A stretch of 59,983 nt of DNA from Thermoanaerobaculia bacterium (GTDB taxonomy: Bacteria; Acidobacteriota; Thermoanaerobaculia; UBA5066). The notes beneath the pieces were generated by a model that saw only the letters and a list, made by a program, of their open reading frames with translations, did not search any database and was not told the DNA's origin. The stretch covers positions 1 to 59,983 of the forward strand of contig DASVJU010000202.1 in assembly GCA_036385755.1 (NCBI GenBank), written 5' to 3'. Below are positions 14,250-59,983 of the stretch, piece after piece; positions within the stretch are counted from its first letter, which is position 1; the number at the start of each line of letters is the position of its first letter. The position numbers and the translations under genes are program-made.

Positions 14250-15450
14250 TCACCTTCCCGGCGGCGAGCGCCGCCATGGCTGCGCCGAACTCCCGCGACT
14301 TCGATTCCATCTCGCTCCATTCGGCATCGGGCTGCGAGTCCCACACGATTCCGCCTCCGGCGTGGTAGTCCACTGTATCCCGGCCGACGAGCGCCGTGCG
14401 GATCGCCACGTTGAAGACGGCACGGCCGTCGCCGCGCACGAATCCGGCCACGCCGCAATAGGCACCGCGCGCGACGGGCTCGAGGTCGTGGATGAACCGA
14501 AGAGCCGCCCGCTTCGGCGCGCCCGTGATCGAGCCTCCGGGCAGCGTCGCGCGCAGGACGTCGGCGAGGCCCGTGCCGGGGCGGAGTCGGGCTTGCACGG
14601 CCGACTCGAGGTGATGGAGATGGCGGAACGATCGAAGCGCGCGGAGCGCCGTCGTCTCGACGGTCCCCGGTTCCGCCACCTTCCCGAGGTCGTTCCTCAG
14701 GAGGTCCACGATCATCACGTTTTCGGCGGCGTCTTTCGGGGAGCAGAGCAGGTCCGCGCGGCGGCGTGCGTCTCCTTCTTCGTCGGATGCGCGCGCGATC
14801 GTGCCCTTGATCGGCTTCGTGACGACACGCCGCGCCGCGAGATCGACGTCGAGGAAGAGCTCCGGAGAGTTCGACACGACGGCCCAGTCTCCCCCGCCGT
14901 CGGCGAGGGTCACCGCGAACGGCACGGGATTGTCGGTGTAGAGCGCGTCCGCGAGAGCGAAGGGGTCGACGCGCGACGCAAAACGCGTGCGGCGCGAGAG
15001 ATTGACCTGGTAGACGTCGCCGCGGGCGATGGCGTCACGGATGGCCTCCACGCCGCTTCCCCACCCGCTCGAAGAGAGCGACTGCTCCGCAGTCGCCGGT
15101 TCTTTGAAGGTGAAGAGAGAAGACGCTGCGGGCTGGCGTCGCGCGGCGACCGCAGCGGCTCCTCGGCGGGTGTCGAAGACGGAGAAATCCGCGAAAGGTA
15201 GAAATTCATGCTCGCGCACGAGGGACGTCGACCCTTCGAGGTAGACGCCCGCTTCGTAAGAGATGAATCCCGCGGCCAGCAGATTTGGGTTGCCGCTCGC
15301 GGCGATCTCGTCGAGAGCAGCGAGAACGCCGGACAACTGCTCCGGCCTCTCGGCGCATATTCTCTTCTCTTCACCCTCTAAGAAAATCTTCCCTCTTCTC
15401 TTTCCTCCCAGTCCCCAACCGTCCCCCCCGAATAAGACTTTCATCGGCAT
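14236..15450 (-). CDS. pabB: aminodeoxychorismate synthase component I (short form)
   Basis: 404 aa. Chorismate-binding core with PIKGT (the Lys is diagnostic for PabB versus TrpE PIAGT), plus SPKDAAENVMIVDLLRNDL, GGSITGAPK and GGGIVWDS. The N-terminal ~30 aa are encoded by a repeat copy. Confidence 0.85.
   Translation of the reverse strand: MPMKVLFGGDGWGLGGKRRGKIFLEGEEKRICAERPEQLSGVLAALDEIAASGNPNLLAAGFISYEAGVYLEGSTSLVREHEFLPFADFSVFDTRRGAAAVAARRQPAASSLFTFKEPATAEQSLSSSGWGSGVEAIRDAIARGDVYQVNLSRRTRFASRVDPFALADALYTDNPVPFAVTLADGGGDWAVVSNSPELFLDVDLAARRVVTKPIKGTIARASDEEGDARRRADLLCSPKDAAENVMIVDLLRNDLGKVAEPGTVETTALRALRSFRHLHHLESAVQARLRPGTGLADVLRATLPGGSITGAPKRAALRFIHDLEPVARGAYCGVAGFVRGDGRAVFNVAIRTALVGRDTVDYHAGGGIVWDSQPDAEWSEMESKSREFGAAMAALAAGKVNDGR
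15357..15409 (-). repeat. GA-arm / TTTC-N3-GAAA element, solo copy in the pabB 5' region
   Basis: The minus strand reads GGGAGGAAAGAGAAGAGGGAAGATTTTCTTAGAGGGTGAAGAGAAGAGAAT. It is translated in frame as GGKRRGKIFLEGEEKRI. Confidence 0.7.
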
Positions 15451-15460
15451 CGTCTAGTCT

Positions 15461-15895
15461 ATGGGGATCGTGCGCGACCCACACCCCGCCGTCGAGACGC
15501 CCATTCAGGTGCGCTACGCCGAGACCGACGCCCAGCGCGTCGTGTACCACGGCAACTACATCATCTGGTTCGAGGTCGCGCGCACGGCGTTCTGCGAACG
15601 CGCCGGGTACCCCTACCCGCGGATGGAGGCAGAGGGCTCCTTCATCACCGTCACCGAGGTGCATGTGCGGTATCGCCGCTCGGTGCGCTACGGCGACACG
15701 GTGGTGGTGCGGGCGCGGATGACCGCGCTGAAGAGCCGCGGATGCACCTTCGCCTACGAGGTCGTCCTGCCGGACGGCCAGCTCGCGGCCGAGGGCGAAA
15801 CGCAGCACCTCTTCCTCGACGACGCCGGCAAGCCGCGCACCGTTCCCGAGGCGATCGCGGACGCGTTTCGCTCGTTCGGCGGGCTTTCCGCCTAG
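15461..15895 (+). CDS. acyl-CoA thioesterase, 4HBT/YbgC-like hotdog fold
   Basis: 144 aa. VRYAETDAQRVVYHGNYIIWFEVARTAF matches the YbgC/4HBT catalytic Asp motif. Confidence 0.85.
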   Translation: MGIVRDPHPAVETPIQVRYAETDAQRVVYHGNYIIWFEVARTAFCERAGYPYPRMEAEGSFITVTEVHVRYRRSVRYGDTVVVRARMTALKSRGCTFAYEVVLPDGQLAAEGETQHLFLDDAGKPRTVPEAIADAFRSFGGLSA

Positions 15896-16380
15896 CCGCC
15901 GTTCGGGATCTTCTTCGAGAGGGCGCGCTGGACGAGGGCCGGAACGAGGCCCGCCACGTCTCCGCCGAGCTGATGGACCTGTTTGACGAGGCGGCTCGAC
16001 GTGTAGGAAAGCTCCTCCTTGGGCGTGAGGAACAGCGTCTCGATCTCCGGACCCAGGCGGCGGTTCATGAGGGCCATCTGGAACTCGTGCTCGAAGTCCG
16101 AGACGACGCGCAGCCCGCGCACGACGATGCGCGCTTTTTCCTTTCGCATGAACTTCACGAGGAGGCCCCTGAAGGATTTCACCTCGACCTTCGGCTCGCG
16201 CCGGAAGATCGCGCGAATCATGTGGAGCCGCTCCTCCACGGTGAAGAGGGGGGATTTGTCCGTGTTGATGAGGACCGCGATGAGCACCCGGTCGAAAAGG
16301 TGGCAGCCTCTCCGGATCAGGTCGACATGGCCGTTCGTCATGGGGTCGAACGTGCCCGGATAGACGGCGGTGCGCTTCAC
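15892..16380 (-). CDS. coaD: phosphopantetheine adenylyltransferase
   Basis: Track ORF 15892..17565 trimmed to GTG 16380 (GTGA overlap). VKRTAVYPGTFDPMTNGHVDLIRR carries the (T/H)xGH nucleotidyltransferase motif. 162 aa. Confidence 0.9.
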   Translation of the reverse strand: MKRTAVYPGTFDPMTNGHVDLIRRGCHLFDRVLIAVLINTDKSPLFTVEERLHMIRAIFRREPKVEVKSFRGLLVKFMRKEKARIVVRGLRVVSDFEHEFQMALMNRRLGPEIETLFLTPKEELSYTSSRLVKQVHQLGGDVAGLVPALVQRALSKKIPNGG

Positions 16381-17252
16381 GCGAGACGGGATTGTACGTC
16401 CCCGCGCCTTCCGAGGAACGCATCGCCGAGCCGGCGCGCCGAAAGGACGAGGAGGAACAGCGCGATGCCGGGCGGAAGGACACACCACCAGGCTCCCGGC
16501 AGGAGGTTGCGCGCCTCGGCCAGCGTGCGCCCCCAGGAGGCGGCCGGCGGCGGCGCCCCCAGCCCGAGGAAGGAAAGCCCGGCCTCGGTGAGCACCGCAG
16601 AGCCGAGCACGTAAGGCAGGGTCGCGAGCGCCGGCGGGAGCGCGTGCGGGAGCACGTGCACGAACAGGAGCCTGACGTCCGAGGCGCCCGAGGCACGGGC
16701 CGCATCCACGAAGGCTTCGTTTCTCAGGCGCTGCGTGCCGGCGCGCACGAGGCGCGCCGCGTCCGTCCAGCCCGTCAGGGCGATGAGAAGCGCGGCGATG
16801 AGGAACGACGGCTTCAGGAACGCCGCGCCCGCGATGACGAGGACGAGGGCCGGAAGCGCCTGGACGATCTGCAGCAGGAGGAGGACGGCTCGATCGACGC
16901 GGCCGCCCGCCCAGCCCGCGAGCGTCCCGAGCGCCGCTCCGAGCCCGAGCGCGAGCGCGGACGCCAGGAGTCCGGCCGCGACGGAGAGCCGTGCCCCATG
17001 GAGAACGCGTGCGAGCACGTCGCGGCCGAGCTCGTCCGTGCCGAGGAGATGCCGCCTCCCGGGAGACGCGAGGCGCCGGTCCAGATCCACGCCGTCCGGG
17101 TCGAAAGGCACCGGCGCGCCGAGAATCGTCTCTCCCGCCCGGCCGGAGACCCACGGCTTCTCGCGTGCGATGAGCGGAGCAAGGAGCGCGAGCAGCGGAA
17201 ACAGCGCGAAAGCGATCCCCGCGCGGCGGAGGGCGGCCGGGGCGCCCGTCAT
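16377..17252 (-). CDS. peptide/nickel ABC transporter permease (DppC/OppC-like)
   Basis: 291 aa multi-TM protein with N-terminal OppC-type motif LLGTDELGRDVLARVLHGARLS. Confidence 0.85.
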   Translation of the reverse strand: MTGAPAALRRAGIAFALFPLLALLAPLIAREKPWVSGRAGETILGAPVPFDPDGVDLDRRLASPGRRHLLGTDELGRDVLARVLHGARLSVAAGLLASALALGLGAALGTLAGWAGGRVDRAVLLLLQIVQALPALVLVIAGAAFLKPSFLIAALLIALTGWTDAARLVRAGTQRLRNEAFVDAARASGASDVRLLFVHVLPHALPPALATLPYVLGSAVLTEAGLSFLGLGAPPPAASWGRTLAEARNLLPGAWWCVLPPGIALFLLVLSARRLGDAFLGRRGDVQSRLA

Positions 17253-25894: not shown

Positions 25895-27351
25895 AGGGGA
25901 ACTCCTTGCAAGAAGAAACAGAAGAAGAAAAGAAGATTTCTTTGAAGGGAAAAGGAAGAGAAGAGAAGAACTGCTTCAGGGGAAGCGTCGCGCTTCTGGC
26001 TGCCGCTGCCCTCCTCCGGGTCGCCCCGGTTCTCGGGCAGACGCCGAGGCCCGTGACTCCCCTGTCGCCACCCTCCACCGCGACCGCTCCCTCCGGATTC
26101 CAACAGGCCTCCAACATCGACCTTTCCATCACGGGCAGCTCCAATGCGCGCCGCCCGCTCGCGATCCCGGTGACGATCGCGCCGCTCCTGCCGGAGCTCC
26201 AGACGAAGGCCGTCGATCCGTTCTACACGACCCTGGCCGACGACCTCGCGGGCTCGGGTGTCTTCGTCGTGGCCGATCCGGCGCTCTACCCGAAGGGGAT
26301 GCGCCCGCCGCAGAACCGCGAAGAGGGTGACATGTGGAAAGCCACGTCGGCCCAGTTCCTTCTCGATACGCGGCTGTCGCCGGAGGGCGGGAACGTGGTC
26401 GTCGAGGCGTCTCTGTGGGACCTCGGCACGCTGAAGTCCATCCTGAGCAAGAAATACACCGGCGAGCCCCGTGCGGCGCGCCGCATCGCCCACACCCTGG
26501 CGAGCGACCTCGTGCGCCAGTTCACCGGCAAGCCCGGCCCGTTCCTCACGAAGCTCGCCTTTTCCTCCGACCGCGACGAGCCGCGCGTGAAGGAGATCTA
26601 CACGATGGACTTCGACGGCGAGAGCCAGCGGCGGATCACATATTCCCGCACGCTGTCACTCGCTCCCGACTGGTCGCCGGACGGCACGAAGATCGTGTAT
26701 CAGTCCTACGAGAAGGACACGCCGGGGCTGTGGCTCATCGGAAAGGACGGGACCGAAAAGCGGCCCATTCCCGTTCCGACCCAGCTCAACGCATCTCCGT
26801 CGTTCTCACCGGACGGCAGGACGGTTGCGTTCTGCGGCAGCGTCCGGGGCAACACGGAGATCTTCACCGTCCAGACGGACGGTTCCTCTCTGAAACGCCT
26901 CACCGAAAACGCGGCGATCGACTCGACGCCCCGCTGGTCCCCGAACGGCCGCGAGCTCGCGTTCACGTCCAACCGCCAAGGCACGCCCCAGATCTTCATG
27001 ATGGACCTCGAAGGCGCGAATGTGAGGCGCGTGACGCTGGCGGGCAACTGGAACGACGAGGCCGCGTTCTCGCCCGACGGCGGGCGCCTGGCGTTCGCCT
27101 GCCGGAACGAGGGCGATTTCCAGATCTGCGTGATGGATCTCCTTTCAGGCCGGACCGTGCAGATTTCGAGCGGGTCCGGCGCCCACGAAGGACCAACGTG
27201 GTCCCCCGACGGCACGAAGATCGCCTGGGAGGTGCAGCACGGCAGCTCGACCCAGATCGCCATCGGGAACGCCGACGGCAGTGGAACGGCGCGTATCGTG
27301 ACGTCTTCCGGGAACAATTATTCCCCCTCGTGGATCAAGACGCTAGAATAG
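25891..27351 (+). CDS. tolB: Tol-Pal system beta-propeller protein TolB
   Basis: 486 aa. WD40-like PD40 repeats (SPDGTKIVY, SPDGRTVAF, SPNGRELAF, SPDGGRLAF, SPDGTKIAW). GTG 25891 (GTGA overlap). The first ~27 codons are a repeat copy. An alternative TTG start lies at 25942. Confidence 0.9.
   Translation: MKGNSLQEETEEEKKISLKGKGREEKNCFRGSVALLAAAALLRVAPVLGQTPRPVTPLSPPSTATAPSGFQQASNIDLSITGSSNARRPLAIPVTIAPLLPELQTKAVDPFYTTLADDLAGSGVFVVADPALYPKGMRPPQNREEGDMWKATSAQFLLDTRLSPEGGNVVVEASLWDLGTLKSILSKKYTGEPRAARRIAHTLASDLVRQFTGKPGPFLTKLAFSSDRDEPRVKEIYTMDFDGESQRRITYSRTLSLAPDWSPDGTKIVYQSYEKDTPGLWLIGKDGTEKRPIPVPTQLNASPSFSPDGRTVAFCGSVRGNTEIFTVQTDGSSLKRLTENAAIDSTPRWSPNGRELAFTSNRQGTPQIFMMDLEGANVRRVTLAGNWNDEAAFSPDGGRLAFACRNEGDFQICVMDLLSGRTVQISSGSGAHEGPTWSPDGTKIAWEVQHGSSTQIAIGNADGSGTARIVTSSGNNYSPSWIKTLE
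25894..25970 (+). repeat. GA-arm / TTTC-N3-GAAA element, solo copy forming the first codons of tolB
   Basis: ...CAAGAAGAAACAGAAGAAGAAAAGAAGATTTCTTTGAAGGGAAAAGGAAGAGAAGAGAAGAA. The 18-mer GAAGATTTCTTTGAAGGG (25932-25949) is identical to the reverse complement of 36197-36214. Confidence 0.8.
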
Positions 27352-29167: not shown

Positions 29168-29791
29168 CTAGAACCCTTCCAGGATCGTCGTGACGAGGTT
29201 CTGGGCGAACGGGCGGGCCATGGCGTCGATGGCCTCCCGTTCGCGGTCGTAATACGAGCTCGCGCTCGACGGCACGGTATAGGGCTGCCGGAACAGGTAC
29301 GCGGGCTCCGCGAAGATCGGCTTGTCCGTCGCCTTCTCCGTGAGGACGAGTTTTCCCGTCACGGTCACCTGGTACTCGACCGCGATTCCGTTCGCATCGA
29401 AGCGCACGGGCGCGACGTTGCAGGACGTCAGATGCCCGGCAAGCTCCGCGTCCGCCGCCGACCGGTCGGAAACCGGCTTCAGGCGGCCGCGCGCTGACAG
29501 CTCGCGGATGACGGCGTCCGTGAGGCGCTGCTCGAGTCCGACGACCGTGGTGTCGTTGATGAACTGCGCCACGTAAACGGTCTTCACGGTCGCGGGGAGC
29601 GCGCTCGACCCTGTTCCCACCAGGGTGTACCCGCAACCGAAGAAACCGAAGACGAGAGAGAGACAAGAGGAGAAGAGAGAGATTTCTTTGAAAGGGAAAG
29701 AGTCACGGGCGCGGCACGGGCGCTTCGGCGCGGCGGCCGCTTGCCCGCGCCCGTTCGAAGAAATTCCCTTGTCCGAAATCTCTCTTCTCAC
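29168..29791 (-). CDS. lptE: LptE-like LPS-assembly lipoprotein (start uncertain)
   Basis: Lies immediately downstream of leuS, which is conserved leuS-lptE synteny. Lipobox-like FFGC followed by GYTL. About 155 aa mature size. The only in-frame start after the leuS stop is GTG 29791 (GTGA overlap), which gives an unusually long 52-aa pre-Cys leader encoded entirely by a repeat element. Confidence 0.55.
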
Positions 29792-29797
29792 TTCGCC
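29641..29797. repeat. complete inverted-pair element spanning the leuS stop and lptE start
   Basis: Plus arm 29641-29704 (GA arm plus GATTTCTTTGAAAGGGAAAGAG), a 49-nt GC-rich interior, and minus arm 29754-29797 (reverse complement GAAGTGAGAAGAGAGATTTCGGACAAGGGAATTTCTTCGAA). Confidence 0.8.
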
Positions 29798-32358
29798 ACG
29801 ATGTTCAGCAACCGATCCTGGACCCAGATGATCTTGACGCGTTGCTTGCCCTCGAGCCACTTCGCGATGACCGGATTCGCTTCCGCGGCCGACAATGCTT
29901 CTTTCTCATCCGCGCCTCTTCGAAGCTTGATCTCGGCCCGAACCTTCCCGGATACCTGCACGGCGATGGAGGCGACTTCCATCTCGGCGAGAGCCGGGTC
30001 ATACGCGGGCCAGCCCGAAACGAGGAGGCTCTTCTTGCCGCCCATCCTCTCGTTCAGCTCCTCCGAGAGGTGAGGCGCGATGGGATGGAGAAGCGTGACG
30101 AGCGTCCGAAGTGACGTCGCGGTCTCCCCCGGGTCCGCGCCCGCATCGCCGACGAGAGTCGTCGCATGGTTGAGGAACTCCATGAGGTGCGCCACGGCGG
30201 TGTGGAACGAGAACGCCCGGAAGTCCTCCGTGACCCTCTTCACGGCCATGTGGCGCGCGCGCGCCGCGGGCGTGTCGGCCGCCCCAGGCTGTCCCTGCGG
30301 ATCGGCGCCCGTCTGAAGGAACCGGTCGACCGTGGAGCGAACCCGCCAGAGGAAACGCTCGGGGCCGCTGATCCCCTCGTCGCTCCACTCGGCGTCCTTC
30401 TCCGGCGGTCCGAGGAAGAGCACGAACGCGCGGACGGCGTCGGCGCCCTTCTCGGCGATGAGCGGATCGAGGGATACGGCGTTGCCGCGCGACTTGGACA
30501 TCTTCTCGATGCGCCCGGTCGGAGACTGGCGGGTGATCATCCCCTGGTTGAAGAGCGCGGAGAACGGCTCCTCGAACGGCACGAGGCCGAGGTCCTTCAG
30601 GATTCGCGCGAAGAAGCGCGCGTACAGGAGATGGAGGATGGCGTGCTCGATCCCGCCGATATACTGGTCGACGGGTGTCCACTCTTTCGCGATCGCGGCG
30701 TCGAAGGGCGCCCGATCGTTCTTCGGGTCGACGTACCTCAGGTAGTACCAGGACGAGTCCACGAAGGTGTCCATCGTGTCCGTCTCGCGGCGCGCGGGGC
30801 CGGCGCACCTGGGGCACGTCGTGTTCACGAACGAGGCGACCTTCTCGAGGGGATTTCCGCCCTTGCCCGTGAACGGCGCGTCGGGAGGCAGGACGACGGG
30901 CAGGTCCTTCTCGGGCACCGGCACCCAGCCGTCCTTCTCGCAGTGGATCATCGGGATCGGCGTTCCCCAGTAGCGCTGGCGCGAGATCAGCCAGTCGCGG
31001 AGCCGGTACCGGATGCGCGGCCCGCCGATCCCGCGGCGGGCGGCCTCGGCTGAAATGAGTTCGCGGGCAGAGGAAGAAGATTCTGCTGAGAATGGGCCAG
31101 AGGCGACGAGGTTGCCTTCGCCCGTATATGCGGCCGACGGAGCACCGGCAATGCCAGGAGCGCCGCCCTGCCCCTCATCCCTTCTAAGAAAATCCGCGGT
31201 TTCCTCTTCTTCCTCTTTCCGAAGCAAATCCTTCTTCTCTTCTTCGATGACCTTGACGATCGGAATCCCGTACTTCTTCGCGAAGTCGAAATCGCGTGTG
31301 TCATGCGCGGGCACTGCCATGAGCGCGCCCGTGCCGTAATCGGCGATGACAAAGTTCGCGAGCCATACGGGCACTTCCCGACCGGTGAAGGGATTGATCG
31401 CCTTGCGGCCGGTGTCGCGGCCGTCCTTCTCGGCGCCCTCGGCCTCACGCACGATCCGCTCCTGGCTGCGGACGGACGCGACCCATGCCTCGAGTTCGGC
31501 CCTCTTCGGGTTCCCCTCGAGGAGGCGCGGGACGAGCGCATGCTCGGGGGCGAGGATGAGCGCCGTCGCGCCGAAGACGGTGTCCGGACGCGTCGTGAAC
31601 ACGCGCACCGTTTCCCCGAGCGACGGGATCGCGAAGTCGAGATCGGCGCCCGTGGACTTGCCGATCCAGTTGCGCTGCATCGTGACGACCTTGTCGGGCC
31701 ACTTGCCGAGCGTGTCGAGGCCTTCCAGCAGCCGCTCTGCATAGTCGGTGATCTTCAGGAACCATTGCTCCAGCTCGCGTGGGACCACGGGTGTGTTGCA
31801 GCGTTCGCAGACGCCCCCCTCGGCCTGCTCGTTCGCGAGCACGGTGAGGCACGAGGGGCACCAGTTGACCGCCGATTTCTTCCGGACGGCGAGGCCCTTC
31901 TCGAGGAGCCTGAGGAAGAACCACTGGTTCCAGCGGTAGTACTCGGGTTCGCAGGTCGTGACTTCCTTCGTCCAGTCGTAGAGGACGCCCCACGAGCGGA
32001 ATTGCTCCTTCATGGCCGCGATGTTCGCGAGCGTGGACGTGCGGGGATGGATTCCCTTCTGGATCGCGTAGTTCTCGGCGGGAAGGCCGAACGCGTCCCA
32101 GCCCATTGGGCAGAACACGGTCACGCCGGTCTGCCGGAGGAAGCGGTGGAGCGCGTCGGTCAGGAAGTAGGTCCGGGCGTGCCCCACGTGCAGGCGGTCG
32201 CCCGACGGGTACGGGAGCATGACGAGGAGGTACGTGCCTTCGCCCGCGGGCTTCTCGGTATCCACGAAGGCGGCCCGATCCGCTTCCCAGCGCTCGCGCC
32301 ACTTGGCCTCTATCCGGAGGATTTCGTCGCTCTTCGTCGTCGGCGTCACACTGCTCAT
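29788..32358 (-). CDS. leuS: leucine--tRNA ligase
   Basis: 856 aa. HVGHARTY (HIGH), KMSKSRGN (KMSKS), [18 protein letters not shown]. Confidence 0.95.
31068..31245. repeat. inward-facing pair of element arms inside leuS
   Basis: Plus arm 31068-31096 (GCAGAGGAAGAAGATTCTGCTGAGAATGGG). Minus arm 31171-31245 carries two cores (reverse complement GGATTTGCTTCGGAAAGAGG and GGATTTTCTTAGAAGGGATGAGGGG). Confidence 0.7.
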
Positions 32359-43110: not shown

Positions 43111-44099
43111 GCGACGCGCCCCGGCCCCGGCGCACGTTCCGCGCCGACCGTGGTGACGCCGGCGAGCGCATCGACCGCGTCCTGCTCCGGCACCTCAACG
43201 ACCTGCCCGAAGCCTCGCGAACGAAGATCCAGGAGTGGATCGATGGCGGATTCGTCTCCATCGAAGGGAGAAGATCGAAGAAGAGCTCGGAGAAGGTGAA
43301 GACGGGAGAGGAGATCGCCGTCGAGCTGCCTCCGCCTCCGGCCCCTCGCCCCGACATCCTGGCTCAGGACATCCCTCTCTCCGTCCTCTTCGAAGACTCC
43401 GAGATCCTCGTCCTCGACAAGCCCCCAGGCCTCGTCGTGCACCCGGCCGTCGGCCATCGGGACGGGACGCTCGTGAATGCGCTCCTCCACCGCTCCAAGG
43501 ACTGGGCGGGCCCCGCCGACCGCCCCGGGCTCGTTCACCGGCTCGACAAGGACACGTCGGGGGTGCTCGTGATCGCGAAGACCGAGCGGGCCATGGCGGT
43601 GCTCGGGAAGGCGATGAAAGAGAGATCCTTGGAAAAGGAATACCTGGCGGTCGTCTACGGACACCCACCCGTTCGCAAGGGAAAAATCGAGATGGGCATC
43701 TTGCGCGACACGAAGGACCGCAAGCGCATGGCCGCCTCGAAGACCGAGGGGCGGCCGTCGACCACCTTCTATGAAATCCTCTCCGAATCTTCCGGCCTTC
43801 TCTCGGGTCTCTCGCTCCTGAAATGCCGGCTCGTCACCGGCCGGACGCACCAGATCCGCGTGCACCTCAAGGCGATGAACCTGCCCATCGTCGGCGATCC
43901 CGTCTACGGCTCGCCCCGCTGGAAGGGGTTGAAGGACGGCGCGCTCGTGGAGGCCTGCAAGGCTTTTCCGCGCCAGGCCCTCCACGCCTGGCGCCTCGGG
44001 ATTCGCCACCCGGCGACGGGCGAGGCAATGACGTTCACGGCTCCCGTGCCGGGAGATCTAAAGGCCCTGTTTCTGGCCGCTCGGATACCCGTGCCGTAA
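43107..44099 (+). CDS. rluD: RluA-family 23S rRNA pseudouridine synthase (RluD-like, S4 domain plus catalytic domain)
   Basis: GTG 43107 (GTGA overlap). Catalytic motif HRLDKDTSGVLVIAK. Also KEYLAVVYG and GRTHQIRVHL. 330 aa. Confidence 0.85.
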   Translation: MSDAPRPRRTFRADRGDAGERIDRVLLRHLNDLPEASRTKIQEWIDGGFVSIEGRRSKKSSEKVKTGEEIAVELPPPPAPRPDILAQDIPLSVLFEDSEILVLDKPPGLVVHPAVGHRDGTLVNALLHRSKDWAGPADRPGLVHRLDKDTSGVLVIAKTERAMAVLGKAMKERSLEKEYLAVVYGHPPVRKGKIEMGILRDTKDRKRMAASKTEGRPSTTFYEILSESSGLLSGLSLLKCRLVTGRTHQIRVHLKAMNLPIVGDPVYGSPRWKGLKDGALVEACKAFPRQALHAWRLGIRHPATGEAMTFTAPVPGDLKALFLAARIPVP

Positions 44100-44130: not shown

Positions 44131-45765
44131 ATGCGAATCGCTCTCCCTGGCGCGGCCACCTTCGTCGCGTCGGCCCTGATGGCTTCTTCCGCCCGGGCCG
44201 GCCTCGTCGAGCACGATGTGCTGCCTCAGCAGACCGACCCCGCCGTCAGCACGAATCTGGATTTCCACGTCGCGTACGTCGACACGTCGGCCCCCTCGAA
44301 CGGCCGCCTCTTCGTTTTCCTGCCCGGCACACAAGGGCTTCCCCGCTTCTACAAGCTCATCGTGCAGGAAGCCGCGAAGAGCGGATTCCTCGCGATCGGC
44401 CTGACGTATCCGAACGACAAGGCCGAGGGAGTCGTCTGCGCGGGCTCCCCGGACGTCGACTGCGCGGAGAAGTTTCACGTCGAGACCCTCACGGGACTGG
44501 ACGTCAGCACGCTCATCTCGGTCGCACCCGCCGACGCGATCGAGAACAGGCTCCTGAAGGCGCTGCAATTTCTCGCGAACCGGTATCCGTCCGAGGGCTG
44601 GGGGGACTTCGTGGACGGGAACGTCCTCCGGTGGGGAAAGATCCGCGTGGGCGGCCACTCTCAGGGCGGCGGGCACGCGGCGTTCATGGGGAAGGACCTC
44701 GTTCTCGACGGCATCACCTGCCTCTCGAGCCCGGACGACTGGGACACCCGGCTCAACGCGCCTTCGGCCTGGATCGCGAAGCCCCGGGCGACGCCTGCTT
44801 CCCGCATGTGGGGCTTCGGGAACGTGAACGACGATCTGGTGCCGTTCGCGCACGCGACAGCCAACTGGAACCTCTTCGGAATGGGCGCCTTCGGCGCGAC
44901 GTCCTCGGTGGATTCGGGGAGCGCTCCGTGGGGAAACGGATCGCACGAATTGTCGACCGCTCTGAACATAGGCACGTCGTCCCACAACATGCCTGCGGTC
45001 GACGTTGCGACGCCGAAGGCCGCGGACGGGAGCGCCTTTTTCGCACCCGTCTGGCGCCAGATCGCCTTCACCGTCGCGGCCGAAACGACGTGGATCCTGC
45101 CGTCTTCGGCGCACGCAGCCGGAGCGGGAGGCGCGTTCTACACGACGGATCTCCTCGTCGCGAATCCGGACGCGCTCGACACAACGTTCGTTCTGAAGTT
45201 CCTCGGGCACGACAGGGACGGGCGGACCGGAACCGAAAGGGCCTTCACGCTCGGCGCTGGCCGGTCGGTGACGTACACGGACGTCCTCGGGAGCGTCTTC
45301 GGCGCCTCGAACGACTACGGCCCGATTCAGATTCGCTCGACCACCTCGTCCCTTCTCGTCTCGTCAGAGACCTCGACCCCGAGCGCGTCCGGAGGCACGT
45401 TCGGCCAGTCGGTCCCTGCCTTCGCGGCAGCGGATCTGATCGGGATCGTCCCGAGGACCATTCTCGGGGCGCGCGAGGATGCCTCGTTCCGCACGAATCT
45501 CATTCTCGCGAACGCGACGGAGGCGGGCATCGACGTCCTCGTGCGCTGGTACGACGTGAACGGGGCTCTCGCCGCCTCTCGCACCGCGACGCTCGCACCC
45601 CTCGGCATGACACAGATGACGCGCGTCCTGGCGACGCTCGGGGTGTCGCCGGCCGCCGGCGGACGGCTCACGGTCTGTTCGGCGACGGCCGGGGTCTCCT
45701 TCGCGGCGTACGCGTCGGTCATCGACGAGGCGACAAACGACCCGCGCACACTTCTGCCCCGGTGA
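44131..45765 (+). CDS. secreted two-domain protein: N-terminal alpha/beta-hydrolase-like (GHSQGG) plus an unknown C-terminal beta-rich domain
   Basis: 544 aa. Signal peptide MRIALPGAATFVASALMASSARA. Nucleophile-elbow-like RVGGHSQGGGHAAFMG. The C-terminal ~240 aa match no family I recognise. Confidence 0.65.
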   Translation: MRIALPGAATFVASALMASSARAGLVEHDVLPQQTDPAVSTNLDFHVAYVDTSAPSNGRLFVFLPGTQGLPRFYKLIVQEAAKSGFLAIGLTYPNDKAEGVVCAGSPDVDCAEKFHVETLTGLDVSTLISVAPADAIENRLLKALQFLANRYPSEGWGDFVDGNVLRWGKIRVGGHSQGGGHAAFMGKDLVLDGITCLSSPDDWDTRLNAPSAWIAKPRATPASRMWGFGNVNDDLVPFAHATANWNLFGMGAFGATSSVDSGSAPWGNGSHELSTALNIGTSSHNMPAVDVATPKAADGSAFFAPVWRQIAFTVAAETTWILPSSAHAAGAGGAFYTTDLLVANPDALDTTFVLKFLGHDRDGRTGTERAFTLGAGRSVTYTDVLGSVFGASNDYGPIQIRSTTSSLLVSSETSTPSASGGTFGQSVPAFAAADLIGIVPRTILGAREDASFRTNLILANATEAGIDVLVRWYDVNGALAASRTATLAPLGMTQMTRVLATLGVSPAAGGRLTVCSATAGVSFAAYASVIDEATNDPRTLLPR

Positions 45766-45810: not shown

Positions 45811-47034
45811 ATGAGCGTCATTCGAACCTCCGCCCGGGTCTCCGCGCGCGGACTCGCCATGCCGGCCTCCCCTATCCGCAAGCTCATGCCTCTCGCGGAC
45901 GAGGCGAAGAAGCGCGGCGTGAAGGTCTATCACCTCAACATCGGCCAGCCCGACCTCGAGACGCCGGAACCCATGCGCCGTCGACTGGCGACGCTGAAGG
46001 ACAAGACCTACGCGTACTCGCCCTCGAACGGGACGCCGGAATACCTCGATTTTCTCCACGCGTACTACGCGAAGCTCGGCCTCGCGCTGAAAAGGGGCGA
46101 GATCCTCGCGACGACGGGCGGAAGCGAGGCGCTCCTGTTCGCTTTCATGGCCTGCGCCGATGCGGGGTCAGAGATCCTGACGGTGGAGCCGCTCTACACG
46201 AACTACCGCTCTTTCGCGGCGATGGCGGGGCTCAGCCTTCGCCCGATCGTGACGCGCGGCGAGGACGGTTTCCACCTTCCGGCGCGCACGGAATGGGAAA
46301 AGGCGCTGACGCCGAAGACGCGGCTCGTCCTCCTCTGCAACCCGAACAATCCGACCGGAACCGTCTACTCGAAGGACGAGATCGTGCGCGCGGCGGAGTT
46401 CTGCCGCGACCACGGCCTCTTCTTCGTGTCCGACGAGGTCTACCGGGAGTTTCTCTACGACGGCCGGGAATCCGTCAGCGCGCTCTCGCTCGCGGGATTC
46501 GAGGAGCAGGTCGTCGTGGTGGATTCCCTCTCCAAGCGGTTCTCGGCCTGCGGCATCCGGCTCGGCGCGCTCGTCACGCGCAATGCCGACGTCGCGGGGG
46601 CGTGCAACCGCATGGCCCAGGGCCGCCTCTCGCCGCCGGGACTGGCCCAGCACATCGCGCCCGGAGCGCTCGAGCTGGGGCCCGAGTACTACCAGGGCAT
46701 CATCCGCGAGTATCAGAAGAGGCGCGACACGCTCTACGACGGGCTCTCGAAGATCCCCGGCGTCTTCCTCCGCAAGCCCGAAGGGGCCTTTTACTTCGTG
46801 GCGCGCGTGCCCGTTCAGGACAGCGACGATTTCGCGGCGTGGCTCCTTTCGGACTTCGCTCTCGACGGGAAGACCGTCATGGTCGCCCCCGCGAGCGGTT
46901 TCTACGTCACCCAGGGCCTGGGGCTCGACGAGATCCGCATCGCGTACGTCCTGAAAGAGGACGACCTGAACGCGGCCGTCGAAATTCTCGCGCAGGCGAT
47001 TCCGGCGTACCGAAAAGCAAGAGGCCTCGACTGA
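45811..47034 (+). CDS. pyridoxal-phosphate-dependent aminotransferase, class I (aspartate/aromatic type)
   Basis: 407 aa. NPNNPTG, DEVYREF, and PLP-Lys motif SLSKRFSACGIRLG. Confidence 0.9.
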   Translation: MSVIRTSARVSARGLAMPASPIRKLMPLADEAKKRGVKVYHLNIGQPDLETPEPMRRRLATLKDKTYAYSPSNGTPEYLDFLHAYYAKLGLALKRGEILATTGGSEALLFAFMACADAGSEILTVEPLYTNYRSFAAMAGLSLRPIVTRGEDGFHLPARTEWEKALTPKTRLVLLCNPNNPTGTVYSKDEIVRAAEFCRDHGLFFVSDEVYREFLYDGRESVSALSLAGFEEQVVVVDSLSKRFSACGIRLGALVTRNADVAGACNRMAQGRLSPPGLAQHIAPGALELGPEYYQGIIREYQKRRDTLYDGLSKIPGVFLRKPEGAFYFVARVPVQDSDDFAAWLLSDFALDGKTVMVAPASGFYVTQGLGLDEIRIAYVLKEDDLNAAVEILAQAIPAYRKARGLD

Positions 47035-47090
47035 TCGAGGCCTCCGCTCCCAATACCTTCTAAGAAAAACCTACTTCTTCTTTTTCTTCG
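47007..47090. repeat. inverted-pair element at the convergent aminotransferase/ALDH junction, enclosing the terminator hairpin
   Basis: Plus arm GTACCGAAAAGCAAGAGG (47007-47024). Minus arm 47045-47090 (reverse complement CGAAGAAAAAGAAGAAGTAGGTTTTTCTTAGAAGGTATTGGGAGCG). Both stop codons lie inside the element. Confidence 0.6.
47021..47044. terminator. perfect 10-bp GC-rich hairpin between convergent genes (candidate bidirectional terminator)
   Basis: GAGGCCTCGA (47021-47030), loop CTGA, TCGAGGCCTC (47035-47044). The aminotransferase TGA lies in the loop. The hairpin is flanked by the two arms of a repeat element. No clean U-tract. Confidence 0.5.
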
Positions 47091-48609
47091 CGGACGCCTC
47101 GCCCGCGGGCACGTCGATCTGCGCCTTCTGGATCGTCCCGGAGTAGTCGACGTAGATCGACTTCCACTCGCTGAAGACGTCGAGAGCGGCCAGTCCCGCC
47201 TCGCGGTGGCCGTTCCCCGTCTTCTTCGTGCCGCCGAACGGCAGGTGCGTCTCGGCGCCGATCGTCGGGAGATTCACGTAGAAGATTCCGGCTTCGAGGT
47301 CGCGCATCGCCACGAAGGCCTTGTTCACGTCCTGAGTGAAAATCGCCGACGACAGGCCGTATTCGCTGTCGTTCGCGACGTCGATCGCCTCTTCGAGGGA
47401 CGAGACCGGGAGGATGGACGTGACGGGGCCGAAGATCTCCTCGCGCGCCACCCGCATCCCGCGGTGGCAGTCGGCGAAGACGGTCGGGGCCACGAACCAG
47501 CCCTTCTCGTGGGCCTTGCCCGCGAGCCGCCGGCCGCCGGCGACGCACTTCGCGCCTTCGGCCTTGCCGATCGAAATGTAGTCGAGAACCGTGTCGAGCT
47601 GGCTCTCGTTGATGGAGGGGCCCATCTCGTTCTTTTCGTCGAGTCCGCTGCCGACCCGAAGGGCGTTCGCGCGCTCGGCGAGCATCGCGGTGAACTTCCG
47701 CGCGACCTTCTTGTGCACGAGGAGCCGGGAGGACGCGGTGCAACGCTGTCCGCTCGTCCCGAAGGCGCCCCAGATCGACCCGTCGACGGCCAGCTCCAGG
47801 TTTGCGTCGTCCATCACGATGATCGGGTTCTTGCCGCCCATCTCGAGGTGGACGTGCTTGAAGGAAGGGGCGCACGCCTCGTTGATCGTCTGCCCGACCG
47901 ACGTCGAGCCGGTGAACGACACGACCTTGACGCGCGGGTCCTTGAGAAGCGGCATCCCCACCTTCGAGCCGCTGCCGGAGACCACGTTGAAGACGCCGGG
48001 GGGAAGGCCTGCATCCTCGAGCGCGCGCGCGAAATTCACGACCGAGAGAGGCGTGTCCGTGGCGGGTTTGATGACGACGGTGTTGCCGCAGACGAGGGCC
48101 GCGGTCGTCTTCCAGGCGGGAATCGCCATCGGGAAGTTCCACGGCGTGATGAACGCGCAGACCCCGATCGGCGACCGCACGGACATCGCGAACTTGTTCG
48201 GCAGCTCCGACGGCGTCGTCTGCCCGTGCAGGCGGCGGCCCTCGCCGCCCATCAGGAACGCCATGTCGATGGCTTCCTGGACGTCTCCGCGGGCCTCTTT
48301 GAGGACCTTCCCCATCTCGCGCGTCATGTCGCGGGCGTACTGCTCCTTGCGGTCGCGCAGGATCTCGCCGAGGCGGTACAGGATCTCGCCGCGCTGCGGG
48401 CCCGGCACGAGCCGCCATGATCTGTAGGCTTCGGCCGCGACGTCGACGGCGTCCTTCGCGTCGCGCTCGTCCGAGTCGGCGAACCGGCCGATCAGGTCGG
48501 TGACGTCCGCCGGGTTGCGGTTCTCGAACGTCCGGCCCGAGCGGGCCGGCGTCCATTTTCCAGCGATCCAGTTTCCGTGAACGGGTGCGGACGAGGCCGA
48601 CGAAACCAT
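47071..48609 (-). CDS. aldehyde dehydrogenase family protein
   Basis: 512 aa. [27 protein letters not shown], catalytic-Cys segment [21 protein letters not shown]. The C-terminal AKKKKK and the TAG stop are encoded by a repeat arm. Confidence 0.9.
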
Positions 48610-57218: not shown

Positions 57219-57224
57219 TCTGCC

Positions 57225-57824
57225 ATGGGCAAAGGCGAGATCACCCGGCAGGCCATTCTCGACCACTCGGTCTCGGTCGCGAGCACCGTGGGCCTCGACG
57301 GGCTCACGATCGGACGTCTCGCCGGGGAGATGGCCCTCTCGAAAAGTGGCCTCTTCTCCCATTTCCGGTCGAAGGAGTCGCTCCAGATCCAGACGCTGGA
57401 ACACGCCGCCGCCCGCTTCGCGGATCTCGTGATCCGTCCGGCGCTCGCGGCTCACCGCGGAGAGCCCCGGATCCGCGCCGCATTCCGGCGCTGGATGGAC
57501 TGGCCGAAAAAGAGCGGGATGCCCGGAGGCTGTCTTTTCGTGGCCGCGGCCGTGGAACTCGACGATCAGCCCGGAGCCGCGCGCGACCATCTCGTCGCGC
57601 AACAGAGGCAGTGGCTCGCGCTGCTCGCGAACGTGGTTCGAGGCGCCGTCACGGAGGGTCACTTCCGCGCGGAAGTCGAACCCGAACAATTCGCACAAGA
57701 CCTCTACGGCGTCATGCTCTCGTGTTTTTTCTCCCATCGTCTTCTCGAAGATCCGGACGCGGGCCGCCGCGCCCGCGCAGCTTTCGAGAATCTCGTCATG
57801 GCCGCACGGATTCCCCAGGCCTGA
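57225..57824 (+). CDS. TetR/AcrR family transcriptional regulator
   Basis: Trimmed to ATG 57225 (MGKGEITRQAILDH...). HTH LTIGRLAGEMALSKSGLFSHFRSKE. 199 aa. Confidence 0.85.
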   Translation: MGKGEITRQAILDHSVSVASTVGLDGLTIGRLAGEMALSKSGLFSHFRSKESLQIQTLEHAAARFADLVIRPALAAHRGEPRIRAAFRRWMDWPKKSGMPGGCLFVAAAVELDDQPGAARDHLVAQQRQWLALLANVVRGAVTEGHFRAEVEPEQFAQDLYGVMLSCFFSHRLLEDPDAGRRARAAFENLVMAARIPQA

Positions 57825-57836
57825 CCCTGAAGGCAC

Positions 57837-58790
57837 ATGTCGCACGCCCTCGCTCCCCCACCGCGCCGACGCGCTCCCCTTTCCCGCAGGCTTCTGATCC
57901 CGTCGGTTCGCCTCCTCGGCGCTGTCAGCCCGGCGCTCGCTTCCCGGGCCGCAGAGCGTCTCTTCTTCACGCCGAGGCGGCGGCGTGCGCCTGCGCGCGA
58001 GCGCGCCGTCCTCGGGACCGCGGCACGCGAGTGGGTCGAGTTCCGGAGAAAGCGCATCGCCGTCTGGCGCTGGGGCCATGGCCCGGCGGTCCTTCTCGCC
58101 CACGGTTGGTCGGGCGGAGGCGGGCAGCTCACCGCTTTCGTCGAGCCTTTCGTCTCCGCGGGGTTCTCGGTCCTGACCTGGGATGCTCCCGGCCACGGCC
58201 GCAGTCAGGGTAAACGATCGGACCTCCTCGAATTCGCGGCCCTGATCGACGTGCTGGCCCGACGCGAAGGCCGGGTTCGGGCCATCGTCGGACACTCTCT
58301 CGGCGGCGCCGCAACGGTGATCGCGTGCGCCGGAGGCGCGCCGGCCGAGCGCGTCGTCCTCATCGGGGCGGCGGCGGATCCGACGGACTTCTTCCGCTGG
58401 TTCCTCGACATCGTGGGGTTCGACGACGTCAGGCGCGCTACGACGATGGCCCGGCTCGAGCGAAAGTTCGCGTTCCGCTGGGCCGAGGCGAACGTCGCGA
58501 GGGCGGCCTCCTCGCTCGAGCACATCCCTGCCCTCGTCGTGCACGACCGCGACGACGCCGAGGTCCCCATTGCCGACGCGGAGGAGATCGTGCGTTCGTG
58601 GCCCGGCGCGCGCCTCCACGCCACGTCGGGGCTCGGACATCGCCGCGTCCTGTGCGAGCCCAGCGTCGTCACGACAGTCGGCCGCTTCCTGACCGAGGGG
58701 ACGGGGCAGGAGTTTCATTCAGAGGCGGAGAACCTCGAGTCGGATCTCTGGGATCGCCGCACGCGCTGGCAGCCCACACCGGCGGTCTGA
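57837..58790 (+). CDS. alpha/beta hydrolase
   Basis: 317 aa. HGWSGG, nucleophile elbow GHSLGG, and a late HD..D/H region (VVHDRDDAEV...GLGHRR). Confidence 0.8.
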   Translation: MSHALAPPPRRRAPLSRRLLIPSVRLLGAVSPALASRAAERLFFTPRRRRAPARERAVLGTAAREWVEFRRKRIAVWRWGHGPAVLLAHGWSGGGGQLTAFVEPFVSAGFSVLTWDAPGHGRSQGKRSDLLEFAALIDVLARREGRVRAIVGHSLGGAATVIACAGGAPAERVVLIGAAADPTDFFRWFLDIVGFDDVRRATTMARLERKFAFRWAEANVARAASSLEHIPALVVHDRDDAEVPIADAEEIVRSWPGARLHATSGLGHRRVLCEPSVVTTVGRFLTEGTGQEFHSEAENLESDLWDRRTRWQPTPAV

Positions 58791-58841
58791 CCCGCAGCGA
58801 ACACTGGAAACCGGGCGCTCCGCCCCGTATCGTGGGGGTGG

Positions 58842-59983
58842 ATGGCCCTCGAGGAATATCGCCGGAAGCGCCGCTTCGACGTGACGAAGGAGCCCGCCGG
58901 CGCGAAGACACCGGCGAAGCGCCGAGCGTCGCGCCGGGCTCTCGCCTATGTCGTCCAGAAGCACAGGGCGACGGCCCTCCACTACGACTTCCGGCTCGAA
59001 TGGAACGGGGTGCTTCTCTCGTGGGCGATTCCCAAGGGCCCGTCGCTCGATCCGGCCGTCAAGCGCATGGCCTCCCACGTCGAGGACCATCCGCTGGAGT
59101 ACGCGCCCTTCGAAGGAATCATCCCGGCCGGTGAATACGGTGGCGGCACGGTGATGGTCTGGGACCGCGGCACGTGGACGCCCGAGACACCCGACGTGGA
59201 TGCGGCGCTCGCGAAAGGCGATCTCAAGTTCACTCTTCAGGGCGAGAAGCTCAAGGGGTCGTGGGTCCTCGTCCGCACGAAAGGCTGGGGCTCGTCGAAG
59301 AAGCCGTCCTGGCTCCTCATCAAGCATCGCGACGCCTTCGCGTCCGACGAGGACGTCGCGGAGTCGCGCCCGCGGTCCGCCGTCTCGAACCGCCTCCTGA
59401 CGGAGATCGCGCTCGACGAGGGCGGCGACGTCGAGAAAGCCTCGACGGGCGATCCGGTCGGCGAGGTGGAGAAGCTTCTCGCTGACCCGAAAAGGCTCCA
59501 GCGAAAACAGAACGCGATTCCCGCGGTCTGGCACTCCAAGGTTCGAAAAGCAGGGTCCGAAGAGCACCAAGAAAATATTGCTTCGAAAGGTAAGAGGGGC
59601 GCCGCGGTGGCACCGCAGAAGCCGGGTCGGTCGCCGCGCGGCGCAGCCGAAGCCCAGCCCCTTTCTAAGAAATCTCCGTCTTCCTCTTTTCCCGTCCCCG
59701 TCTCTAATCCGAGCAAAATCTTCTGGCCCGAAGAGGGCTGGACGAAGAGCGACCTCATCGCCTTCTATGCGGGGGTGTTTCCCAGGCTGAAGCCGTACGT
59801 CGACAACCGGCCGCTTTCTCTGGAGCGCGCGCCCGACGGAATCCTCGGCGAGCCTTTCTACCAGAAGGAGAAGCCCGCTTCGATGCCGCGGGACACGCCG
59901 ACCGTGGCGGTGCGGCACGGCAAGGACCGGAAGGTCACGAACACCGTGGTCGGAGGAAAGCTCGAGACGCAGCTCGCCCTCGC
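58842..59983 (+). CDS. ligD: DNA ligase D fragment: 3'-phosphoesterase domain, linker, then the start of the polymerase/primase domain; runs off the right edge
   Basis: Not in the ORF track because it is edge-truncated. Manual translation from ATG 58842 gives MALEEYRRKRRFDVTKEP...VVQKHRATALHYDFRLE...LLSWAIPKGPSLDP...HVEDHPLEYAPFEGIIPAGEYGGGTVMVWDRGTW (PE domain). Later comes VSNPSKIFWPEEGWTKSDLIAFYAGVFPRLKPYVDNRPLSLERAPDG, which is a LigD Pol-type N-terminus. Confidence 0.85.
   Translation, partial: MALEEYRRKRRFDVTKEPAGAKTPAKRRASRRALAYVVQKHRATALHYDFRLEWNGVLLSWAIPKGPSLDPAVKRMASHVEDHPLEYAPFEGIIPAGEYGGGTVMVWDRGTWTPETPDVDAALAKGDLKFTLQGEKLKGSWVLVRTKGWGSSKKPSWLLIKHRDAFASDEDVAESRPRSAVSNRLLTEIALDEGGDVEKASTGDPVGEVEKLLADPKRLQRKQNAIPAVWHSKVRKAGSEEHQENIASKGKRGAAVAPQKPGRSPRGAAEAQPLSKKSPSSSFPVPVSNPSKIFWPEEGWTKSDLIAFYAGVFPRLKPYVDNRPLSLERAPDGILGEPFYQKEKPASMPRDTPTVAVRHGKDRKVTNTVVGGKLETQLAL
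59557..59693. repeat. inward-facing pair in the ligD interdomain linker
   Basis: Plus arm CCGAAGAGCACCAAGAAAATATTGCTTCGAAAGGTAAGAGGGG (59557-59599). Minus arm 59658-59693 (reverse complement GGGAAAAGAGGAAGACGGAGATTTCTTAGAAAGGGG). 58-nt GC-rich interior. Confidence 0.75.

Follow-up and report, generated by a model that had tools for sequence, protein, structure and literature searches.

A clade-specific DNA word in facing pairs, written mostly in place into housekeeping genes of Thermoanaerobaculia

How does one short sequence come to lie, in an open reading frame, in gene after essential gene of a GC-rich bacterium? The question is raised by the entire 59,983-nt contig (hereafter the window) of a metagenome-assembled genome deposited as Thermoanaerobaculia bacterium (Acidobacteriota). 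The window is 67% GC, with few patches that are sharply AT- or purine-rich, and the genes identified in it by Pfam are all ordinary housekeeping genes: a pabB-like gene (PF00425), tolR/tolB/pal/ybgF (with a TolB match at tolB), lptE, leuS, MTAP, ileS, lgt, rluD, aldehyde dehydrogenases and bactofilin. An initial annotation of this DNA had described a family of short repeats within these genes, and had proposed either an element of the MITE type (a miniature transposable element with inverted repeats), tolerated in frame, or a DNA- or RNA-level site selected inside genes. We find a clade-specific, high-copy and high-information word, arranged in facing pairs with optional homopurine arms, that has been written into coding and non-coding DNA mostly in place and then held at orthologous positions. 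Independent assemblies reproduce the pattern, and we regard it as real.

The unit of the word is an asymmetric half-site of ~22 bases with the consensus GATTTC-TTN-GAAGGG-WAAGAG(GGG), preceded by a homopurine arm. The TTC-N3-GAA dyad at its centre is nearly invariant, and the central base of the core varies among T, A or C with the reading frame. The core GATTTCTTWGAARGGG has six matches at ≤2 mismatches in the window and none in 100 shuffles. An nhmmer search with a profile built from 40 half-sites, counting matches of ≥5 bits, recovered 16 half-sites in the window, all in 15.3-59.7 kb; the initial annotation had counted at least 16 patches. The two exact repeats it had reported, an 18-mer at 25932-25949 (+) and 36197-36214 (-) and a 16-mer at 29681-29696 and 40471-40486, were likewise recovered. 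The window also holds 17 homopurine or homopyrimidine runs of ≥14 nt where 4.3 were expected, and 12 of the 17 flank cores. The GA-only arm that had been described ahead of the core is not general: long arms are confined to places where the protein tolerates them, and none occur at ileS pairs 1 and 3.

These genomes are 67-72% GC, and they have no AT-rich patches other than the cores. Most copies are inside open reading frames (ORFs), with about two thirds of pairs within long ORFs of high GC content at third codon positions; gene junctions hold about half of the copies. The IleS, LeuS and TolB ORFs run through their patches intact. It had also been remarked that every copy lies in or next to a coding sequence and that the frame used avoids the stop codons of the core; both follow from the location of the word in an intact, roughly 90% coding genome, and neither counts as independent evidence. 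Spacing is very uneven, with four pairs in 2 kb of ileS and none in 1-15 kb or 48-59 kb.

The half-sites follow a strong pairing rule. Six pairs are clear in the window (29681/29765, 36182/36211, 39656/39776, 40471/40565, 41469/41652 and 59576/59674), and an additional weak pair is found at ~40024/40148 in ileS. Two more had been proposed, at 31068-31245 and 47007-47090, where only the minus copy is convincing. When the window is taken together with 40 independent metagenome contigs, neighbouring half-sites ≤400 nt apart are convergent in 29 cases, with their GGG ends inward as first described, divergent in 3 and direct in 1. The three divergent cases are orthologues of one another, all at one locus in ileS; on closer reading, this locus is a weak convergent pair with a degenerate left half. 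The centres of paired halves are 15-175 nt apart, these distances show neither helical phasing nor a modulo 3 preference, and a facing pair reads identically from both directions. The interiors, many of them only 15-80 bp, are unique sequence, often native coding sequence, and are not part of the repeat. Nor are the two halves of a pair especially alike: identity is 0.50 within pairs vs 0.53 between pairs (permutation p = 0.9), and a left half matches its reverse-complemented right half at roughly 60-65% of aligned positions (about 34/54).

The word is clade-specific. Across the sampled regions of six clade genomes (the window, L201, L202, L207, L204 and L203), half-sites occur at 0.27 per kb in the window and at 0.30-0.44 per kb in the five syntenic relatives, which share 74-92% IleS identity with it and together contribute 40 half-sites in 111 kb. 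None was found in ~164 kb of sister and outgroup loci (L205 at 67% identity, L206 at 64%, L001 at 62% and five more Acidobacteriota loci), and these loci have essentially no low-GC patches. If the sampled density holds genome-wide, a 3.7-3.9 Mb genome would carry half-sites on the order of a thousand. A scan of metagenomes also found the word beyond the window: at least about 41 high-GC (≥66%) contigs among the matches listed (120 loci) share an extended consensus, a GA arm followed by GATTTCTTAGAAGGGTAAGAGGGG, and nearly all of the high-GC contigs listed have the facing partner, CCCTTCTAAGAAATC followed by a CT arm, 20-190 nt downstream. On a metagenome contig (L176, ~1590-1900), an intergenic pair, read from the sequence, is directly upstream of an apparent tRNA gene. 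A scan of viral contigs gave 3 chance matches in unrelated contexts of 29-60% GC, without arms or partners; no phage in that scan carries the word. IleS homologues themselves are graded from 92% to ~68% identity, with the next sister group at 59-66% and then a step to ~49%, and an exact look-up of the LeuS product returned no record. In one relative, L207 (ERZ25039517 contig_20948, 3.67 Mb), ileS, rluD and the aldehyde dehydrogenase gene are each split in two ORFs (8924-11899, 13194-14193 and 15493-17024), which is most likely frameshift error of long-read assembly and not biology.

Site positions are the same in all six clade genomes, down to ~74% IleS identity, and the sampled loci show no presence/absence turnover at 74-100% identity. 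Orthologous copies also keep locus-specific variants (TTT, TTA or TTC). Since these variants persist, we rejected concerted evolution by ectopic conversion as the force that homogenises the word. The cores are held under constraint at the level of DNA. In a codon alignment of ileS from the six genomes, the A/T-ending codons of the window are retained in relatives at 68-95% within cores vs 19-41% elsewhere (p 1e-5 to 1e-9), and an A/T ending is kept by all six genomes at 15 of 37 core codons vs 8 of 131 elsewhere (p = 1.5e-6).

The ileS gene shows most clearly how the word relates to the protein it is written in. Pair 2 has a left half at 40443-40492 (+), with a 28-nt GA arm (encoding GEKEKRERE) and a perfect core (22/22) encoding native DFFERVRE: the codons GAT TTC TTT GAA AGG GTA spell D-F-F-E-R-V and align with the FFE[RK]V of every orthologue. 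Its right half, at 40543-40587 (-), has a core encoding native (P)SYFLSK, in which TAC TTT CTA AGC aligns with native DFLP, and a CT arm read as a poly-Ser tract. The left DNA sequence can be followed from CGCTTCTTCGAGAAGGTG in the outgroup through GAGTTCTTCAAGAGCGTC in L205 to GATTTCTTTGAAAGGGTA in the clade, and the right one, correspondingly, from TCCTTCCTCCCC through TCTTTCTTTCTC to TCTTACTTTCTA. The left core is identical in 6 of 8 aligned clade sequences and differs by 1-3 changes in L202 and L204. Only the arms of this pair add length, +6 residues on the left relative to the sister clade and 0-25 Ser residues on the right. The right arm (40564-40590, alignment A3) ranges from 0 to ~25 residues among relatives at 75-92% identity, differs even among near ones and behaves, in the alignment, like a hypervariable trinucleotide tract; it is wholly gone in L103 and L201, where the cores persist. 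Some relatives carry KEGG or KGGG in place of the poly-Ser.

At the remaining ileS sites there is no length change at all. Pair 1 comprises a left half at 39654-39680 (+; YILLRKEEG), without an arm, and a right half at 39752-39776 (-; PLPLSRKSG; 17/22), the latter traced in the protein series and the codon table. Pair 3 comprises halves at 41465-41491 (+; 19/22), encoding a 10-residue peptide, and 41628-41655 (-; TLSLSEEKL; 17/22). Between pairs 1 and 2 lies a right-type half at 40127-40150 (-; LLLHSQKSP; 15/22), scoring 6-11 bits in the window, L130 and L203; its left partner at 40024-40045 (+), read from the sequence, is very degenerate and is clearer in L202 and L204 (GAGTTTCTCCGGGGCAAGAGAG). 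The corresponding protein replacements include YVLARRA to YVLLRRE, SRRSG to SKKSG, PDLPLEAHAAW to PEISSNEREAW and TGLDEARLAEL to another 11-residue segment; at the right half of pair 1, most of the clade has SKKSG where the sister clade has SRRSG or TRRTG. The patch peptides DFFERV..PPSYFL and EISSNE..LSLSEE are present in nearly all of 38 aligned IleS clusters at ≥68% identity, and the sister clade at 61-66% has neither. A strong pre-existing near match in outgroups (CGCTTCTTCGAGAAGGTG, top 0.1%) was found only at the left half of pair 2. At 4 of 7 ileS sites, L205 has an intermediate sequence. Throughout ileS (10680-10937 and other positions) this genome, at 67% identity, has no detectable half-sites, yet it shares the 18-nt insertion of the left arm; it represents either a state that preceded the word or a lineage that is losing it. 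Judged from these alignments, the word is not in the main an insertion of the type of MITEs or Rickettsia palindromic elements (RPEs) but a recoding in place, because 5 of 7 IleS half-sites are length-neutral and their cores align with native residues.

Recoding is accompanied by real gains of length at three other loci. At the leuS/lptE junction, the left half (29641-29702, +; 27 bits) has a perfect core at 29681-29702 (22/22), and its GA arm is the reverse complement of the region encoding the h-region of the LptE signal peptide. The interior (29703-29743) is GC-rich and self-complementary, and the degenerate right half (29744-29797, -; 15/22; ~3 bits) consists of AATTTCTTCGAACGGG, GATTTCGGACAAGGG and an arm, with TTCGAAGAA centred at 29758. 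In L205, MRRLLTSAAFALALAGCG follows directly after the GTGA overlap of lptE with the leuS stop, whereas LptE of the clade begins MRR, continues with ~34 inserted residues (the pair and the GC hairpin) and then has a 16-residue segment with CT-only codons in place of the original MRR-LLTSAAFALALAGCG. An arm was thus made by recoding a functional signal peptide h-region into CT-only codons. The interior of this pair differs in sequence in L203 and L204. The overlap itself, of the lptE GTG start with the leuS TGA stop (29785-29792, minus strand), is kept in L205 and L203. In the word-bearing clade, LptE has an n-region of unusual length, with ~40 residues ahead of the h-region and lipobox of the lipoprotein.

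In LeuS, a half-site with a long arm (31172-31245, -; 17/22; 12 bits) lies in a clade-specific loop insertion of 30-55 aa (alignment A4) that is absent from L205. L203 and L204 have both halves within this loop; the plus partner proposed in the window at 31068-31100 is weak, native sequence. The N-terminus of MTAP appears to have been built in steps. Outgroups have no extension, L203 and L204 have a single half-site conserved between them, the window and L201 have an abutting pair, and L189, L202 and L207 have pairs with interiors of 60-150 nt. In the window this pair spans 36165-36245, with a truncated plus half at 36165-36190, a minus core at 36190-36211 and an arm to 36245 (29 and 9 bits). 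From the patch to the conserved IGLVGGSG (36120-36270, minus), the sequence offers no ATG, GTG or TTG, and translation must therefore start from the ATG that overlaps the stop of the upstream GFO/IDH/MocA gene (ATGA), so that the patch, from its sequence, must be read as a roughly 30-residue N-terminal extension.

Further half-sites occur elsewhere in the window. A single half-site at 15367-15409 (-), which lies in a divergent promoter region and within the 5' part of the pabB-like coding sequence, has its core at 15367-15388 and a CT run at 15387-15409 (+ strand); it matches the consensus at 16/22, scores 6 bits with nhmmer and has an orthologous site in L212 at 2123+. Another single half-site, at the 5' end of tolB (25908-25970, +; 23 bits), has a GA arm at 25908-25934, a core at 25935-25956 and a second GA run after it, and shares the 18-mer with 36197-36214. 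A weak half-site inside rluD (43757-43778, -; TTFYEILSES; 16/22; 6 bits) is kept in L201, L203 and L204 as low-GC patches. At the 3' end of an aldehyde dehydrogenase gene (47045-47094, -; 7 bits), the arm encodes an AKKKKK tail and the core is just past the stop; its left partner at 47007-47030 is weak. Finally, an ORF at 58791-59981, read by eye as LigD-like without a family search, has in its inter-domain stretch a left half at 59557-59600 (+; QENIASKGKRG; 15/22; 8 bits) and a right half at 59653-59693 (-; PLSKKSPSSS) with an exact core match and a CT arm (21 bits).

Among the parts of the window without the word are an ORF and a gene block. The ORF at 44131-45765 (+; 544 aa), between rluD and an aminotransferase gene, has no Pfam match and no half-site; its place is empty in L202 and occupied by a 165-aa ORF in L201, and it looks like a lineage-specific insertion. 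The block at 1-15300 contains genes for an aldehyde dehydrogenase, an SDR protein, an SPFH protein, an AAA ATPase, an ABC transporter and PspA, and has 0 half-sites where ~5 would be expected; the corresponding blocks of L212 (2200-20000) and L211 (700-21400) have almost none. Identity of the AAA protein is ~87% within the sub-clade and falls straight to ~70% in Pyrinomonadaceae. This identity profile suggests that the PspA-ABC-AAA block may have been acquired later, by horizontal transfer.

What, then, maintains the word? We tentatively favour a clade-specific DNA recognition word, established in place with an uptake-like drive, each half of which would be read by a putative sequence-specific protein. 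The word itself was written mostly in place, by substitution of single bases (with R-to-K type replacements and rare codons ending in A/T among the outcomes), by recoding of neighbouring codons to GA-only or CT-only, and by small indels in the arms. As duplex DNA, each half may be the target of a sequence-specific protein that probably binds the TTC-N3-GAA dyad as a dimer, and facing halves may be used together by synapsis or looping. The word could then be kept and multiplied by recognition-dependent bias, selection or a drive like that of uptake signal sequences (USS) and DNA uptake sequences (DUS). A candidate for such a bias would be preferential DNA uptake with recombination as for USS/DUS, the only documented process of this kind. 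We favour drive over a regularly spaced housekeeping role because the clustering is irregular, with four pairs in ileS and none for 11-15 kb elsewhere.

Previous studies have found 765-1,892 copies of USS/DUS per genome (~0.8 per kb at 1,471-1,892 copies), with 34-65% of them in ORFs at poorly conserved residues, and have found them to be missing from genes without close homologues (PMC2817400). A stop codon in one of the frames restricts where DUS can be placed, and Simonsiella has DUS pairs with dyad symmetry (PMC3630211). The word described here is likewise clade-specific and of high information, and its sampled density of 0.27-0.44 per kb approaches theirs. It lies both inside and between ORFs, arising by substitution at tolerant or near-matching codons, and shares with USS/DUS the one-frame stop limit, stable positions among relatives and dyad pairs (PMC2817400, PMC3630211). 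It may also be scarce in recently acquired genes: there are 0 half-sites in the putatively lineage-specific ORF at 44131-45765 and almost none in the PspA-ABC-AAA block of three genomes. The statement in the initial annotation that no equivalent has been described is close to right, and we found no description when the sequence itself and repeats of Acidobacteria/Thermoanaerobaculia were sought in the literature; USS/DUS, which it did not name, are nevertheless a near behavioural equivalent.

Several points weigh against uptake-like drive or set the word apart from USS/DUS. The putative binding protein, a competence gene and an uptake bias are all hypothetical here; neither the window nor the fetched loci contain genes of the competence machinery (type IV pilus, ComEA, ComEC, DprA), and the prior for uptake is low because sequence-specific uptake has been documented mainly in Pasteurellaceae and Neisseriaceae; the host phylum, Acidobacteriota, is one in which neither competence nor an uptake receptor is known. 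Known USS/DUS cores are 9-12 bp, whereas the word here is twice as long; uptake sequences have no counterpart to its optional homopurine arms of 15-40 nt; and a facing partner at 15-175 bp is nearly obligatory here, even in coding sequence. An uptake model predicts neither the strictly convergent arrangement nor the arms, and the facing requirement and the growth of purine-only arms beside cores fit no model that we considered. The protein changes are also more visible than those of USS/DUS, with loops rich in EK or in Ser and a signal peptide that has been recoded. Whole pairs with their interiors look truly inserted at the LeuS loop and the MTAP and LptE N-termini. Several IleS sites lack an outgroup near match and require 5-9 changes in a stretch of 15 nt, a large number if drive proceeds step by step. 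Moreover, an all-codon test of synonymous identity was not significant (38% vs 34%), and only the A/T-ending-codon test was. It is doubtful, though conceivable, that this is the first uptake-signal-like 'self' word outside Proteobacteria, a composite and paired one that rewrites essential proteins. In a more radical variant, facing nicks may be the places where patches of ~20-50 nt are copied from a template in a single step, which would explain both the facing rule and the many simultaneous changes.

The same in-place evolution could instead reflect a chromosomal site that benefits the host and is not a product of drive, which we consider rather unlikely. Such a site, with the same anatomy, might bind nucleoid or bridging proteins, act as a Chi-like signal made orientation-independent by pairing, or absorb supercoils as an AT-rich or homopurine element. 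The long-term conservation of positions and rare codons, the consensus followed independently by each half, the status of cores as the only AT-rich patches in 67-72% GC genomes, and a facing arrangement that is the same from either direction are all consistent with it; the lack of helical phasing and a spacing so uneven that 2 kb of ileS hold four pairs while 1-15 and 48-59 kb hold none are not, the ~20 conserved positions and the cost to essential proteins far exceed the needs of known architectural sites, and a candidate protein is not known. Quite unlikely, in our view, is an ancient burst of an element in the ancestor of the clade, inserted in frame and later immobilised and partly domesticated. 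The RPEs of Rickettsia, which are palindromic repeats read in frame within genes, provide a precedent, and the word resembles RPEs and in-frame MITEs in being a palindromic family that is read through in housekeeping genes and adds surface peptides, with copies at LeuS, MTAP and LptE that look like insertions. At these three loci L205 and L206 lack whole pairs together with the GC-rich interior that forms a hairpin, the overall dimensions (100-250 bp with terminal inverted repeats) would suit such an element, about half of the copies are at gene junctions, and the intergenic leuS/lptE copy folds well (z = -3.4 and -5.1 for 29640-29800). Most IleS copies, however, are recoded native sequence (FFERV, DFLP, SRRSG) without gain of length, and their interpretation as ancient insertions would require that these be disguised by compensating deletions. 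The interiors are unique and outside the repeat, those in IleS being native coding sequence that orthologues conserve. Copies are not homologous over their full length, and the two halves of a pair resemble each other no more than unrelated halves do. MTAP was built up in steps that began with a single half, no turnover is seen at 74-100% IleS identity, and cores free of constraint would have decayed at synonymous sites instead of being held at the DNA level. An autonomous element between distant facing sites was sought and rejected, as only PnrA-like, ApbE and heptosyltransferase genes lie there, with no transposase. The MITE-like origin first proposed is thus largely unsupported, the cores being native and mostly length-neutral in IleS, the positions fixed and an autonomous element absent. 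Repetitive extragenic palindromic (REP) sequences and their mosaic (BIME) and doublet (REPIN) forms are also short imperfect palindromes found as inverted doublets, high-copy, vertically persistent and lineage-specific; they differ in being extragenic, with a GTAG or CGTC tag and a spacer length specific to the family, whereas the copies here are largely intragenic, lack such a tag and are spaced 15-175 bp apart. No REP-associated tyrosine transposase (RAYT) was seen among the Pfam calls for the window and the fetched loci.

Could the facing halves act as a stem in RNA or single-stranded DNA, enclosing the interior? Such a stem, with a role in mRNA processing, stability or termination or on lagging-strand or incoming single-stranded DNA, is very unlikely. 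The two cores of each pair do pair together in every minimum-free-energy fold, pairs occur at operon junctions (leuS/lptE, GFO/MTAP, convergent 3' ends), and in RNA the CT arms would form tracts poor in G and rich in C. Fold z-scores are nevertheless weak for coding pairs (-0.1 to -1.4), left and right halves match at only ~60-65% and no better within than between pairs, G·U-compatible mismatches show no sense-strand excess (55 sense vs 48 antisense), and unpaired halves (14 sense vs 10 antisense) show no transcript-strand bias. Because pair-specific complementarity, G·U bias and strand bias are all lacking, the word is better described as a consensus read independently at each half than as a stem, and the same comparison of 0.50 with 0.53 led us to reject both stem selection and local inverted duplication. 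The loss of the right arm in L103 and L201 with retention of the cores, together with the conservation of single halves, also argues that the conserved object is not a stem. A search of the whole window against Rfam gave no family at the gathering score; a sub-threshold SAM-Chlorobi match at 29701-29776 (19.7 bits, gathering 35, E = 0.19), on the GC hairpin of the leuS/lptE pair, was treated as chance. Scans over 28.5-48.4 kb found no sigma-70 promoters, and terminator-like sites below shuffle expectation and not at pairs, the sole exception being a native terminator-like hairpin at 47020-47045. Of the second proposal in the initial annotation, a site selected inside genes at the DNA or RNA level, the DNA form is therefore the one that stands, given the retained A/T-ending codons and the independent consensus, and the mRNA stem is not supported. 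Lastly, a regulon of intragenic invertons, in which one recombinase flips interiors to give phase-variable isoforms or knock-outs, we hold to be extremely improbable. A shared facing inverted-repeat consensus around unique DNA is the signature of an inverton family, and intragenic examples exist (10.1101/2023.03.11.532203). On inversion in silico, by which recoding invertons were rejected, the frame stays open in only 7 of 17 coding pairs vs 63% of same-length controls; the interiors in ileS are essential, conserved parts of the protein in the same orientation in all 8 assemblies, many interiors (15-80 bp) are too short, and no recombinase or invertase was identified by Pfam among the 30 ORFs of the window.

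Other resemblances were considered and dropped. The splice-site-like GTAAGAG...AG ends of the interiors were set aside because the interiors are translated native protein, and a +1 frameshift site of the prfB/Ty1 type (CUU UGA / CUU AGA) because that frame is the avoided one. Noc, parS and CodY boxes were dismissed for their spacing and for the asymmetry of the word, and PARCEL repeats because they consist of 25-residue units in tandem (PMC2996958).

If the favoured hypothesis is true, the essential enzymes of a widespread clade of soil and sediment Acidobacteriota owe part of their sequence to a recognition system that acts on DNA. The word would be a third, independent and architecturally different example of a genome-wide word written in place, USS and DUS being essentially the only earlier ones. 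It would also constitute a natural experiment in which DNA-level pressure is set against the constraints of protein and codon usage: rare AGA, AGG, TTT, CTA and GTA codons are fixed despite 88% GC at third codon positions, and accumulation of the word has yielded EK-rich and Ser-rich loops in IleS and LeuS, an LptE signal peptide rebuilt from Ser, Leu and Phe codons, and extended N-termini. In practice, the word would serve as a sharp taxonomic marker for binning and would explain low-complexity protein inserts. More generally, it would imply sequence-specific DNA exchange or another recognition-dependent transmission bias in Acidobacteriota, and would open a direct way to study how genes are exchanged, or how a new system of chromosomal recognition works, in a phylum for which hardly any genetics exists.

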